Below, in pieces: positions 25,029 through 28,236 of a stretch of DNA of 64,000 bases (positions are counted from its first letter, which is position 1; each line of letters opens with the position of its first letter). The notes under the pieces were generated by a model that ran no database searches, was not told the DNA's origin, and saw only the letters and a list, made by a program, of their open reading frames with translations. Source of the DNA: Telmatospirillum sp. (GTDB lineage: Bacteria > Pseudomonadota > Alphaproteobacteria > CACIAM-22H2); assembly GCA_020248985.1 (NCBI GenBank), contig JADCGL010000039.1, forward strand, positions 6,645 to 70,644, read 5' to 3'. Position numbers and translations under genes: made by a program.

Positions 25029-25562
25029 ATGGCTGCGCGTCTCGTGGCGCTATTTTTGCTTTTCGTTGCGCTCGATGCTGGCGCGCAGACCCCGTCTGCC
25101 GCACCGCAAGCGGTAACCTACGAGCACGGCCTCAAAGCGTATCTTGAAGGCGACCACGCTGCTGCATGGTTCGCTTGGCTGGGCTTGGCCGAGGCGGGCG
25201 ATGCGGAAGCCCAATTCTCGATGGGGCATCTCTATCGCGCGGGCGAAGGCGTGCCGCGCGATGCGGCGATTGCGGCCGATTGGTTCTCGCGCGCGGCAGC
25301 TCAAGGCCACGGCCATGCGATGCTCAATCTTGCCTTGATGCACGAGCAAGGGGCGGGCGTGCCGCGCGATCTGGCCCTTGCTTACGCCTATGCCGCCAGG
25401 GCCGGGCGCATCCTTGAGGGCGAGAATTTCGAGCGCGCACGCAGTGCGGCCGCCCGTATCGCACTAGGCTTTCAGCCCAGCGACGCCGAGCGCGCACGCC
25501 GTCTGCTGATCGAGATGGATCGCCGCCAGCCGCTGCCCGCGCGCAGCCCCGTACGGCGCTAG
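25029..25562 (+). CDS. Secreted Sel1-like repeat protein
   Basis: Signal peptide; AQFSMGHLYRAGEGVPRD...WFSRAAAQG and AMLNLALMHEQGAGVPRD repeats. Confidence 0.88.
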   Translation: MAARLVALFLLFVALDAGAQTPSAAPQAVTYEHGLKAYLEGDHAAAWFAWLGLAEAGDAEAQFSMGHLYRAGEGVPRDAAIAADWFSRAAAQGHGHAMLNLALMHEQGAGVPRDLALAYAYAARAGRILEGENFERARSAAARIALGFQPSDAERARRLLIEMDRRQPLPARSPVRR

Positions 25563-25566
25563 ACGG

Positions 25567-26358
25567 CTATTTGCCGGCGAATTTCGCCGGGCGCTTTTCG
25601 AGGAAGGCCGCAACACCCTCGCGGAAATCGGCCGTCGCGAACAAGGCGGCGAAGGCCTTGCGCTCGAACAGCAGACCTTGTTCGAGCGGAACGTCGCGCG
25701 CGGCACGCACCAGTTCCTTGCCGAGCCGCACGGCAAGGGCGGGCTTGGCCGCGATCTTGGCGGCAAGTGCAACGGCGCGCGCTTGGCAGGCATCGTCGGC
25801 GACCGTCTCGGCCACGAGGCCGCATTGTTTGGCCTCCGTAGCGTCGATCGTTTCGCCTGCTAATACGAGTTTCATGGCGATCTGCGGGCCTGCCAAGCGT
25901 GCCAGAATCTGCGTGCCGCCCGCACCGGGTACGAGGCCGAGATTGATCTCGGGCTGGCCGAATTTGGCGCCTGTGCCGGCCACGACGATGTCCGCACTCA
26001 TTGCGAGTTCGCATCCGCCGCCCAGCGCCAAACCGTTGACGGCGGCAACGATGGGTTTGGGAAACCGCCGGATGCGTTGCCAATGGCCGACCCGCGCATC
26101 GTCGAGGGCACCAGCCGTGTCGCGGGTGGCGAGTTCTTTGATATCGGCCCCGGCCGCGAAAATCGCAGGCCCGCCGGTCAGTACAACCGCGTGAACCGCG
26201 GGATCGGCGCTGGCTGCGTCGAGCGCATCGGCAACGGCGCCCAGCAAGGCGGTGCTGAGCGCATTGCGCGCCGTCGGGCGGTTTAAGGTGAGGCGCAGAA
26301 CGCCCGGCTCGGGCGTATCGTGCAGCAATTCGGGGGCAGGCGGTTGCGGTGCGGTCAT
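25567..26358 (-). CDS. Enoyl-CoA hydratase (PaaF-like)
   Basis: LNRP..RNAL, FAAGADI, ALGGGCEL, FGQPEINLG, GAGGTQ, EGVAAFLEKR. Confidence 0.92.
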   Translation of the reverse strand: MTAPQPPAPELLHDTPEPGVLRLTLNRPTARNALSTALLGAVADALDAASADPAVHAVVLTGGPAIFAAGADIKELATRDTAGALDDARVGHWQRIRRFPKPIVAAVNGLALGGGCELAMSADIVVAGTGAKFGQPEINLGLVPGAGGTQILARLAGPQIAMKLVLAGETIDATEAKQCGLVAETVADDACQARAVALAAKIAAKPALAVRLGKELVRAARDVPLEQGLLFERKAFAALFATADFREGVAAFLEKRPAKFAGK

Positions 26359-26374
26359 GGATTCAAAGCTAGCA

Positions 26375-26411
26375 CAAAACGAAACCCCCGCTGGGCGGGA
26401 CCCAGCGGGGG
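26375..26411 (-). terminator. Rho-independent terminator closing the small extended-SD transcript
   Basis: 11-bp perfect stem (+ strand CCCCCGCTGGG/CCCAGCGGGGG, 26385-26411), followed on the minus strand by TTTCGTTTTG. Confidence 0.8.
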
Positions 26412-26441
26412 ATGGATCGAATGCCGTAAGGGAGTGACCCT

Positions 26442-26561
26442 TTACGCCACGTCGGAGGCGATCGATTGGTTCGTCGTCCGCACGCGGCCTGCTTCGAATT
26501 TCTCCAAAGCGGTCACGGCAAGCCCCGGCCCGAAGCCGGAATTGAACGATCCTAAGCGCAC
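26442..26561 (-). CDS. 39-aa small ORF with 17-nt extended Shine-Dalgarno and GTG start (rreB-like)
   Basis: Minus strand GAAAGGAGGTGATCCAG-TG, then (M/V)RLGSFNSGFGPGLAVTALEKFEAGRVRTTNQSIASDVA*. Has its own promoter-like sequence and terminator. Confidence 0.65.
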   Translation of the reverse strand: MRLGSFNSGFGPGLAVTALEKFEAGRVRTTNQSIASDVA

Positions 26562-26708
26562 TGGATCACCTCCTTTCGTAGCGGCGCCCGGTCCGCGATC
26601 CCGCGCGGATGTCGTATCGGGGGCCGGAAGGGCGAATTGGGCCGCCCACCCTATCCGGTCAACCGGGTTGCCAAGAGGTCCCGAATCGGCCGGACTATCG
26701 ACTTGAGA

Positions 26709-26739
26709 ATCATGCGGGAATCGGACTCCGGCGGTCAAG
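26709..26739 (-). promoter_or_regulatory. Putative sigma70-type promoter of the small transcript, GANTC-rich
   Basis: Minus strand CTTGACC-N18-CATGAT; GANTC sites at 26683, 26707, 26718, 26724. Confidence 0.5.
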
Positions 26740-26786
26740 CCCCGGATTGTGACAAGTGGTTCCCGGACCGAATTCGGCCGGGTTTG

Positions 26787-27482
26787 TCACACACCCAGAT
26801 AGCGATGCTGGATCGCCGGTTCCTGCGCCAGCGCGGCCGACGTGCCTTGCCAGACGACGCGGCCTTTTTCGATCACGACATGGCGGTCGGCAAGCTTCAG
26901 CAGCGATTCGAGATTCTTGTCGATGACGAGGATCGCTTGGCCTTCGCGCTTGAGGGCCGCCAGGCAGCGCCAGATTTCCTGGCGCACGAGCGGGGCAAGA
27001 CCCTCGGTCGCTTCGTCGAGAATGAGAAGCTTCGGGTTCGTCATCAAGGCGCGGCCGATCGCGAGCATTTGCTGCTCGCCGCCCGACAATTGATTGCCCA
27101 TGTTGCCAGCGCGCTCGGCCAGACGCGGGAAATAGCCGTGCACCTTGTCGAGCGTCCAGCCGCTGTTGCCGAGCCCGCGCGCCGTCGCCACGAGATTTTC
27201 GCGTACCGTGAGATTGGGGAAAATCTGGCGGCCTTCGGGAACGAGGCCAATACCGGCCTGGGCCACGCGATAGGCGGGAAGCCTCGTAACGTCGGTGCCG
27301 TCGAAGCGCACGCGACCCGCCTGTGGCTTCGCAAGTCCCATGATCGAGCGCACGGTCGTGGTCTTGCCCATGCCGTTGCGGCCCAGCAGCGTCACGACCT
27401 CGCCCGCTTCGACCTTGAAGCCGACGCCGAATAGCACCTGGCTTGCGCCGTAGCTGGTTTCGATGGCTTCGAGCTCAAGCAT
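26787..27482 (-). CDS. HAAT/Liv-type ABC transporter ATP-binding protein (LivF-like)
   Basis: GRNGMGKTT, VPEGRQIF, LSGGEQQMLAIGRAL, LDEATEGLAP. Confidence 0.93.
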   Translation of the reverse strand: MLELEAIETSYGASQVLFGVGFKVEAGEVVTLLGRNGMGKTTTVRSIMGLAKPQAGRVRFDGTDVTRLPAYRVAQAGIGLVPEGRQIFPNLTVRENLVATARGLGNSGWTLDKVHGYFPRLAERAGNMGNQLSGGEQQMLAIGRALMTNPKLLILDEATEGLAPLVRQEIWRCLAALKREGQAILVIDKNLESLLKLADRHVVIEKGRVVWQGTSAALAQEPAIQHRYLGV

Positions 27483-28236
27483 CGCCGTCGCCCAAATAGG
27501 CTGCGCGCACGTCGACATTGGCGCGGATCTCGTCGGGCTTGCCGGTCGCGATCACGCGCCCGTAGACAAGTACGCTGATGCGGTCGGCGAGGGCGAACAC
27601 GACATCCATGTCGTGTTCGATGAGCAGGATGGTTTCTTCGCCCTTGAGTTTGGCGAGCAAGGCCGTCATGCGCTCGGACTCGTCCTTGCCCATGCCGGCC
27701 ATCGGCTCGTCGAGCAGCAGCAGGCGCGGGCGCGTGGCAAGCGCCATCGCGATTTCGAGCTGGCGCTGTTCGCCGTGCGCCAGATTGACCGCGCGCACGT
27801 CGGCGCGCGCACCAAGCCCGACGCGTTCGAGGATCGCCGCTGCGGGCTTGCGCAGATTTTCGTCGGCGCGCGCGGGCGCCCAGGCGCGGAAATTGTGGCC
27901 GTCCTGCGCCTGAACGGCCATCGCGACATTGTCGAGGGCCGTGAAGCCTTTGAAGATCTGCGTGATCTGGTAGGAGCGCGCAATGCCAAGGCGTGCGCGC
28001 GCATCGACCGTGAGGCCGGTCACGTCGGTGCCCGCAAAGCGGATCGTGCCGGCATTGGGCAGGATCTCGCCGGCCAACTGGGCGATCAGCGTGGTTTTGC
28101 CGGCGCCGTTCGGGCCGATGATCGCGTGGATTTCGCCCTCGCGAATGCCGAGCGACACATTGTCGGTCGCCAGCAACCCGCCGAAGCGCTTCACGAGCCC
28201 GTCGACGGCCAGCAGCGATTCAGTGGCTGCCGCCAT
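27475..28236 (-). CDS. HAAT/Liv-type ABC transporter ATP-binding protein (LivG-like)
   Basis: KRFGGL, GPNGAGKTT, LLLLDEPMAG, IEHDMDVV, VRAAYLG. Confidence 0.93.
   Translation of the reverse strand: MAAATESLLAVDGLVKRFGGLLATDNVSLGIREGEIHAIIGPNGAGKTTLIAQLAGEILPNAGTIRFAGTDVTGLTVDARARLGIARSYQITQIFKGFTALDNVAMAVQAQDGHNFRAWAPARADENLRKPAAAILERVGLGARADVRAVNLAHGEQRQLEIAMALATRPRLLLLDEPMAGMGKDESERMTALLAKLKGEETILLIEHDMDVVFALADRISVLVYGRVIATGKPDEIRANVDVRAAYLGDGDA

Follow-up and report, generated by a model that had tools for sequence, protein, structure and literature searches.

On the minus strand of the 64,000-nucleotide (nt) stretch of Telmatospirillum sp. DNA analyzed here (GenBank assembly GCA_020248985.1, contig JADCGL010000039.1; the whole stretch is called the window below), a small unit stands between two protein-coding genes. 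In it, a 17-nt complement of the 3' end of 16S ribosomal RNA (rRNA) runs straight into the GTG start codon of a 39-codon open reading frame (ORF). Judged from its sequence and architecture, this unit is a genus-restricted, enlarged form of the published rre class, which includes rreB of Bradyrhizobium and rreR of the Rhodobacter/Roseobacter clade. We think it probable that the unit encodes an rre-type, 30S-binding RNA similar to rreB and rreR, and that this RNA has been selected at the RNA level. The fold, the extended Shine-Dalgarno (SD) sequence, and the GUG codon are kept as the peptide drifts, which argues that selection sees the contact between RNA and ribosome and does not see the peptide. 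The 39-codon ORF is better understood as a place for ribosomes to land or park than as a protein gene.

The fusion of the 17-mer to the GTG of a 39-codon ORF had been recognized from the letters of the window, and it holds. The minus strand from 26577 to 26561 complements the conserved 3' end of 16S rRNA exactly, and the GTG begins with the final G of this 17-mer. With up to two mismatches allowed, the 17-mer occurs once in the window, against 0.01 expected. It also occurs once in the organism's own assembly (4.30 Mb, 44 contigs), where a reversed control pattern finds nothing; the proposed single copy is thereby confirmed. The proposed complementarity to this genome's own 16S rRNA could be followed in part. 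The 16S gene of the assembly is present only over model positions 9–870 and stops at a contig end, so complementarity was checked on the 16S 3' ends of genus relatives. These are identical over the 17 nt, ahead of UCU, in 11 of 11 other genus genomes, one of which (G004) carries a copy of the locus 98% identical to the window. The sole 16S gene found in the organism's own assembly (G000) lies on contig C13 at 273326–274069 (L002, L003), and its anti-SD is not assembled.

A primer or assembly artefact is excluded, because the sequence after CCAG departs from 16S rRNA (TGCGC at the locus, CCGCA in 16S) and because the locus with its flanks recurs in independent assemblies, namely in 20 other genomes and 10 metagenome contigs. 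A 13-mer core of the sequence is found once or twice in each of the 21 genus genomes, always at this locus or at a 16S end, so that a single gene of this type, and no canonical rre gene, exists in the genus.

The locus is conserved within the genus and was found in no other genus searched by DNA, in agreement with the original prediction of a lineage-specific member whose extended SD–GTG arrangement would recur in relatives. A 412-nt DNA query finds it in 20 of 20 other genus genomes, and in 0 of 4 genomes of other family genera and 0 of 16 genomes of other families. The 20 genomes differ by up to 24% over full-length matches at the locus. Sequence conservation begins exactly at CTTGACC, which contains the −35 element and is invariant in 21 of 21 loci, and runs through the terminator tail, with nearly fixed spacings of 156–162 nt from −35 to extended SD and 200–211 nt from extended SD to terminator end. 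The loci fall into two sub-groups: in sub-group 1 (15 of 21), the full 17-mer runs into GTG, and in sub-group 2 (the other 6), a 15-nt core, invariant throughout, is followed directly by GTG. A pattern scan of metagenomes gave 10 further loci, all 89–100% identical to known members, and added no diversity. The GUG is present in every genome locus (21/21) and every metagenome locus (10/10), amid six following bases that vary, and the six loci that have lost one base still keep GUG adjoining the 15-nt core. This invariance next to variable bases points to a role of the GUG as start codon.

Set against each other, the RNA fold is conserved and the peptide is not. In the GTG frame, the ratio of nonsynonymous to synonymous polymorphism (pN/pS) is 0.94, and the variable columns are distributed 8/14/10 over the three codon positions, with no third-position bias. 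This value was calculated from 10 of the 15 sub-group-1 loci; L005, L006, L007, L010, and L018, which are four near-duplicates and one locus with an insertion, were left out. The same script, applied as a control to the first 33 codons of a gene of the sister genus in 9 loci, gave a pN/pS of 0.28 and columns of 6/5/16, so the method detects coding constraint where it is present. Further, the two sub-groups share only about nine N-terminal residues, and these overlap conserved RNA elements. The longer peptide that had been proposed as the product is, on these grounds, doubtful. Searches of Pfam with the 39-amino acid (aa) reading, a 98-aa reading, and the sister-genus protein gave no match.

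The RNA behaves differently. For 20 sequences, RNAalifold gives a consensus of 72 pairs, with 98.7% of cells paired and 15 pairs changed on both sides; its covariation score is 0.248, compared with 0.135 for shuffles, none of 500 attaining the real score, and 0.04–0.07 when partners are slid. The best-supported helix (helix 10; Table 1) lies within the ORF itself, where 6 of its 12 pairs are compensatory. In the leader, both-side changes are seen in pairs of helices 2, 4, and 5; in helix 3, the only variation is on one side of a single pair. In helix 7, all five pairs are invariant in 20 of 20 sequences, and the loop bases past the GUG vary. The long-range helices 1 and 9, in which the 3' box pairs with GUCG at the 5' end (26702..26699) and with an in-ORF UGCC, show no both-side changes and receive variable support from single-sequence folds. 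Of the leader hairpins named in the original prediction, GGGCG...CGCCC and TCCGCG...CGCGGA are consensus helices 3 and 5; the third, CCGG-TTGA-CCGG, belongs to a variable stretch and lacks conservation. A search of Rfam 15 at E values up to 1 over both strands of 25500–27600 gave no matches.

Two readings in which the peptide is the product can be weighed against these data. In the first, the unit would be a genuine small-protein gene, and the extended SD would tune translation of the 39-aa peptide. The persistence of the GUG, the frame, and the stop position agrees with this: 19 of 21 loci have an ORF of 39 codons, and the sole in-ORF indel is a 3-nt insertion (L018), which gives 40 codons. 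The sister genus, moreover, carries the same extended SD and GTG on a real signal-peptide protein, and the RreB and RreR peptides are reported to be conserved (PMC5711450). We nevertheless judge this reading to be unlikely, given the pN/pS and the lack of third-position excess compared with the control, the few residues shared between sub-groups and their overlap with RNA elements, the one 30-codon version, the lack of a Pfam family, and the fact that frame +2 is equally open. In the second, the unit would be a hok-like type I toxin mRNA, a class characterized by a long structured leader, a sequestered SD, pairing between 5' and 3' ends, and a small peptide. The SD here is indeed predicted to be sequestered, and a long-range consensus helix closes the two ends, but the peptide has no hydrophobic run in sub-group 2 and one of at most about 11 residues in sub-group 1, and no amino acid constraint is seen; we regard a toxin as highly improbable.

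Other reading frames were considered as well. Frame +2 has no stop in 21 of 21 loci, as is true of the GTG frame, so the openness of the ORF is uninformative. The pN/pS of frame +2 is 0.48, which we take as noise, as this frame has no ATG in the stretch translated (in which GTG and TTG are printed as V and L) and the unit contains, on the minus strand of the window, no further ORF of at least 30 aa. The 98-aa extension of the ORF was rejected: its TTG is that of the −35 hexamer, and 6 of 21 loci carry an in-frame TGA one codon ahead of the GTG. The original prediction had suspected a mis-call here, correctly so.

The predicted state of the extended SD is similar in most members. Partition-function folding of the 20 sequences puts GGAG, which opens the SD core, in pairs with P ≥0.97 in every case; the fifth base of the core, a G, is paired with 0.42–1.0. 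The three A residues of the preceding GAAA are unpaired in 17 of the 20 folds (P at most 0.17); in L015, L018, and L019, one A is paired at 0.94–0.96. The partner of the SD in sub-group 1 is the internal 16S-like segment at 26463..26454, paired at P 0.79–1.0 in 13 of the 14 members folded (L018 pairs at only 8–9 positions). This segment differs from the 16S tail by one A-to-G change and forms a conserved island in a variable stretch; its duplex with the extended SD in sub-group 1 is calculated at −19.3 kcal/mol. For sub-group 2, the folds pair the SD with a short CUCC word together with the local GAUCC/GGAUC hairpin, which is the predicted state at P of about 1. A perfect duplex between the extended SD and the 16S tail has −31.0 kcal/mol, and each of five representative RNAs, when co-folded with the 17-nt 16S tail, forms 15–17 intermolecular pairs with it at the extended SD and gains a net −10.9 to −19.4 kcal/mol. 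The layout of rreB has been predicted likewise, with only the five 5'-most bases free as a seed and the rest in a conserved helix (PMC5711450). In canonical rre loci, an internal anti-SD duplex is not clearly better than shuffles (13–48 of 300).

These features suggest how an rre-type RNA of this kind could operate. The unit's own sigma-70-like promoter would drive a stand-alone minus-strand transcript of about 325 nt that ends at the intrinsic terminator, strand and ends being those inferred from the predicted signals. As long as this RNA is free, its internal 16S-like segment, located close to the ORF's end, would hold the SD core and the 3' extension of that core in pairs; in sub-group 2, the local hairpin and the CUCC word would do so. 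GAAA, the first bases of the extended SD, would be left single-stranded as a toehold. The 16S 3' tail of a free 30S subunit could dock on this toehold and displace the internal partner, which would yield a duplex of 15–17 bp and place the GUG at a spacing of 6–7 nt. By analogy with rreB, one might expect 30S to be bound very tightly and to escape slowly, and translation to be weak. Selection would act on the extended SD, the helices, and the GUG, and would not act on the peptide.

A more specific version of this mechanism is possible, and we offer it tentatively, as something less probable than its basis. The unit may be a structured riboregulator that inhibits itself: a copy of the 16S tail within the RNA would hide the extended SD, and free 30S subunits would open it from the GAAA toehold. 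In this way, the RNA would report on, or buffer, the supply of idle 30S subunits. Once captured, it would refold, which would determine its own decay and perhaps also the read-through into the neighboring fatty-acid-oxidation gene.

How does the unit compare with known rre genes? rreB of Bradyrhizobium japonicum (Bradyrhizobiaceae) is a 165-nt mRNA with a 14-codon small ORF (Hahn et al. 2016, PMC5711450). Its 17-nt 16S complementarity ends in the first G of a GTG, and the mRNA binds 30S and is weakly translated; of the rre genes, rreB is the only one for which experiments have shown co-sedimentation with 30S and weak translation. Decay of the rreB mRNA is start codon-dependent, and its overproduction had no effect on growth. 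The roles that the original prediction suggested for the present locus, as a 30S sponge, a storage RNA, or a sensor of ribosome availability, are speculative. rreR, of the Rhodobacter/Roseobacter clade, has an 18-codon small ORF. Both peptides are conserved within their clades, as is the genomic context of rreB (all PMC5711450). The arrangement that the original prediction had given for rreB and rreR matches this published description. The novelty of the class is less than was implied, in that analogues with 16–17 nt of complementarity have already been reported from four α-proteobacterial orders (PMC5711450). The text of the supplement to that paper does not contain the names of the orders; a list of the analogues could exist in its figures. 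In the literature searched, we found no later work on rre genes, and the papers found to cite PMC5711450 concern another topic. Given the published analogues and the shared architecture, the unit is a variant of the rre class and not a new kind of gene.

With rreB, the unit shares the identical 17-nt complement ending in the first G of GTG, its own promoter and terminator (here predicted), single-copy status, a clade-conserved context, and an extended SD of which only the 5'-most bases are predicted to be free. It differs in size, having a leader of about 125 nt, 39 codons, and an RNA of about 325 nt, compared with 165 nt and 14 codons, and in its drifting peptide (pN/pS 0.94), where RreB is reported to be conserved. 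The Bradyrhizobium locus (L092) has a −10-like word about 20 nt before the extended SD and hence a very short leader, and no sequence likeness to the present locus exists outside the 17-mer. With rreR, it shares an extended SD of 16–17 nt fused to GTG, a small ORF, and restriction to a clade; rreR differs in its 18 codons and conserved peptide, and its peptide and flanks are unrelated to the locus. Measured by the features that define the class, then, the 16S complementarity is present, its last base is the first of the GTG (in the window and 15 of 21 loci), and only the 5'-most bases are single-stranded in predicted folds. A very short ORF and a clade-conserved peptide are not found. As to a free-standing transcript, the predictions give a promoter-like site and a terminator, both of them conserved; RNA-library contigs cover the unit, and one of these contigs crosses the terminator.

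Our own scan, in which one genome per species was searched for the 15-mer core plus GTG, gave at least 120 loci, and nearly all of the labeled matches are α-proteobacterial. Among the loci listed, most ORFs have 12–27 codons; the classes are one of 14 codons (RreB type), one of 18 (RreR type), a large one of 21–27 codons, and a few others, and only L094 is of the present type. The large class, which is unnamed and begins MSHC, resembles the locus in having the same 19-mer (17-mer plus TG), and two genera of the window's family carry the canonical type. Unlike the locus, these analogues have a CAACAAC-like context before the extended SD, GTG TCT as start and second codon, and shorter ORFs. Canonical loci have a −10 word about 20 nt before the extended SD, so the 125-nt leader here is unusual. 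The scan also returned a class of extended SD-led ORFs of 24–32 codons beginning MRD.QG or MRD.PG (L055, L062, L084, L120, L128, L138, L145), three of which (L055, L062, L084) lie in metagenome-assembled genomes labeled Burkholderiales or Bordetella, the rest being unlabeled. Single matches are labeled Streptomyces, Phycisphaerales, and Bdellovibrionota; the published distribution, in the text available, names α-proteobacterial orders only.

A likeness outside the genus is found in a sister genus (g22; L151–L159). There, in nine of nine genomes, the 17-mer and GTG (extended SD near position 1501) head an ORF of 61–65 aa with a signal-peptide-like N terminus, a conserved AEGGC-type motif, a Ser/Thr/Pro-rich tail, and no Pfam match. 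This gene is under purifying selection (pN/pS 0.28). In the available text of PMC5711450, an extended SD of such length at the head of a constrained protein gene is not described. The sister gene resembles the locus in its 17-mer and GTG, in a long leader, and, by eye, in the bases on both sides of the 17-mer and the first four codons. It differs in that it is not beside hydratase or livF genes and in that the leaders do not align. A covariance model built from the core of the unit scores 109–135 bits in 21 of 21 genus genomes and 24–38 bits (E 2.4e-4 to 0.2), a weak match, at the extended SD locus of nine of nine sister-genus genomes; it finds nothing at the canonical rre loci of the family. 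In two further genera of the family, L162 (g25) and L167 (g4) have the 15-nt core followed by GATG, with an ATG start, and ORFs of 49 and 63 codons with signal-peptide-like N termini.

These model matches, together with the shared flanking bases and first codons, would be expected if the unit were a decaying, functionless remnant of an extended SD-led secreted-protein gene similar to that of the sister genus. Such a remnant should not have kept a promoter, helices with compensatory changes, an extended SD, a GUG, and a terminator across 20 genomes up to 24% apart. The locus is, moreover, not syntenic with the sister gene, and RNA-library contigs from four studies contain the unit. We therefore consider decay very unlikely.

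The coordinates of the unit are collected in Table 1. The putative promoter and strong terminator of the original prediction were both found again by scanning, and the promoter is conserved. In the terminator stem, 10 of 12 pairs are GC and two pairs have changed on both sides, and the T-run is present on the minus strand only. A 128-aa ORF on the plus strand (26320..26706) overlies the terminator.

Table 1. The unit and its neighboring genes, with positions in the window
Feature	Position	Strand	Remarks
Sigma-70-like promoter	26709..26738	−	TTGACC 26738..26733, 18-nt spacer, CATGAT 26714..26709; consensus scan, 1 site vs 0.1 expected
Structured 5' leader, ~125 nt	26578..26703	−	Predicted start A26703/G26702, from position of −10; extends to extended SD
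Extended SD, 17 nt	26561..26577	−	Complements 11/11 genus 16S 3' ends; 15-nt core invariant in 21/21 loci
39-codon ORF	26442..26561	−	GTG 26561..26559, TAA 26444..26442; possibly translated, no amino acid constraint
Local hairpin GAUCC/GGAUC (helix 7)	26548..26567	−	26567..26563 with 26552..26548; GUG in loop
Covarying in-ORF hairpin (helix 10)	26484..26516	−	12 pairs, 6 changed on both sides, 97.9% of cells paired
Internal 16S-like segment GAUCGCCUCC	26454..26463	−	Predicted partner of extended SD stretch GGAGGUGAUC
Near-invariant 3' box ACGGCAUUCGAUCC	26414..26427	−	Between stop codon and terminator
Intrinsic terminator	26375..26411	−	12-bp GC-rich stem 26411..26385, 3-nt loop, T-rich tail; scan
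livF-like ABC ATPase gene	27518..26787	−	Upstream neighbor; Pfam ABC_tran, 3.6e-33
Enoyl-CoA hydratase gene	26358..25567	−	Downstream neighbor; Pfam ECH_1, 4.5e-71

The position of the unit raises the possibility that it acts in cis, as a leader of the enoyl-CoA hydratase gene in which ribosome loading or 30S capture would set read-through of the terminator. In 20 of 21 loci, the unit is followed on the same strand by the hydratase gene, even though its upstream neighbor is not constant (livF-like in 13 of 21), the gap between terminator and ATG is only about 17–30 nt, and one RNA-library contig (X14, 26319–26667) bridges the terminator into the hydratase gene. Several considerations make this reading unlikely in our view. 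First, the terminator, with 12 pairs (10 GC) and a T-run, is a strong one, and no anti-terminator pairing was noticed, although no systematic search for one was made. Second, a TGn-extended −10-like word stands 6–7 nt before the hydratase ATG in all sub-groups (by eye), as expected of a leaderless promoter belonging to that gene. Third, no run of regulatory codons is conserved between sub-groups. Finally, rreB is a free-standing small mRNA, and its context is conserved too (PMC5711450).

The −10-like word lies on the minus strand at 26366–26374, directly after the terminator; it reads TG-C-TAGCTT in the window and TATAGT, TATACT, or TAAAAT at the same place in relatives (L005–L024). Its position suggests that the hydratase gene has its own promoter and that the hydratase mRNA may be leaderless. 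L013 (G017) is the sole locus of the 21 without a hydratase gene after the terminator and has an AT-rich stretch instead.

Sequences from the unit are present in RNA libraries. Six such libraries contain 43–67% of the sampled words of 26300–26800. Four RNA runs from four studies were aligned to 25900–27200, and each gave one contig on the unit at ≥99% identity, at 26319–26667 (X14), 26419–26684, 26426–26681, and 26429–26702 (X19). The end of the X19 contig at 26702 coincides with the start predicted from the −10 hexamer. The contigs share stops near 26419–26429 and 26681–26702, and these hint, weakly at best, at where the transcript ends. Neither the hydratase flank nor the livF flank is covered at ≥99%; there are only short pieces of 90–95% in ABC-type words and at 25936–25969, and the uncovered part proves nothing. 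A separate 136-nt contig (X19, record 12) matches only the stretch of the extended SD, at 26545–26578, and continues, by eye, as the signal-peptide gene of the sister genus does; that gene may be in the same RNA library.

A number of observations weigh against an rre-type RNA selected at the RNA level. The consensus structure was scored on the alignment from which it came, and the 20 sequences amount to about five lineages. The length of 39 codons recurs in both sub-groups, with the stop (TAA or TGA) at one alignment column, which hints that translation matters, and the rre peptides described are conserved in their clades, unlike the ORF here (PMC5711450). The internal anti-SD duplex is just modestly better than shuffles in sub-group 1 (matched by 3–8 of 300) and no better in sub-group 2 (104 and 152 of 300), and it never varies, so that covariation is silent on it. 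The RNA libraries may contain DNA, and their contigs give neither strand nor true ends; contig X14, furthermore, runs across the terminator and 40 nt into the next gene. Lastly, the linkage to the hydratase gene (20/21 loci) also fits a role in cis.

In general, rre genes are a widespread class, with at least 120 loci in our scan, and gene callers would either miss a unit such as this one or call the false 98-aa ORF. If the riboregulator reading is true, the rre principle would work without a meaningful peptide, and the occurrence of the same initiation region before a secreted protein of the sister genus would show it to be a portable module. A 17-nt extended SD at the head of this constrained protein gene is unexpected if such sites simply block translation. 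The enlarged variant is thus a natural experiment, and the hypothesis that it suggests could be tested in the rreB and rreR systems.

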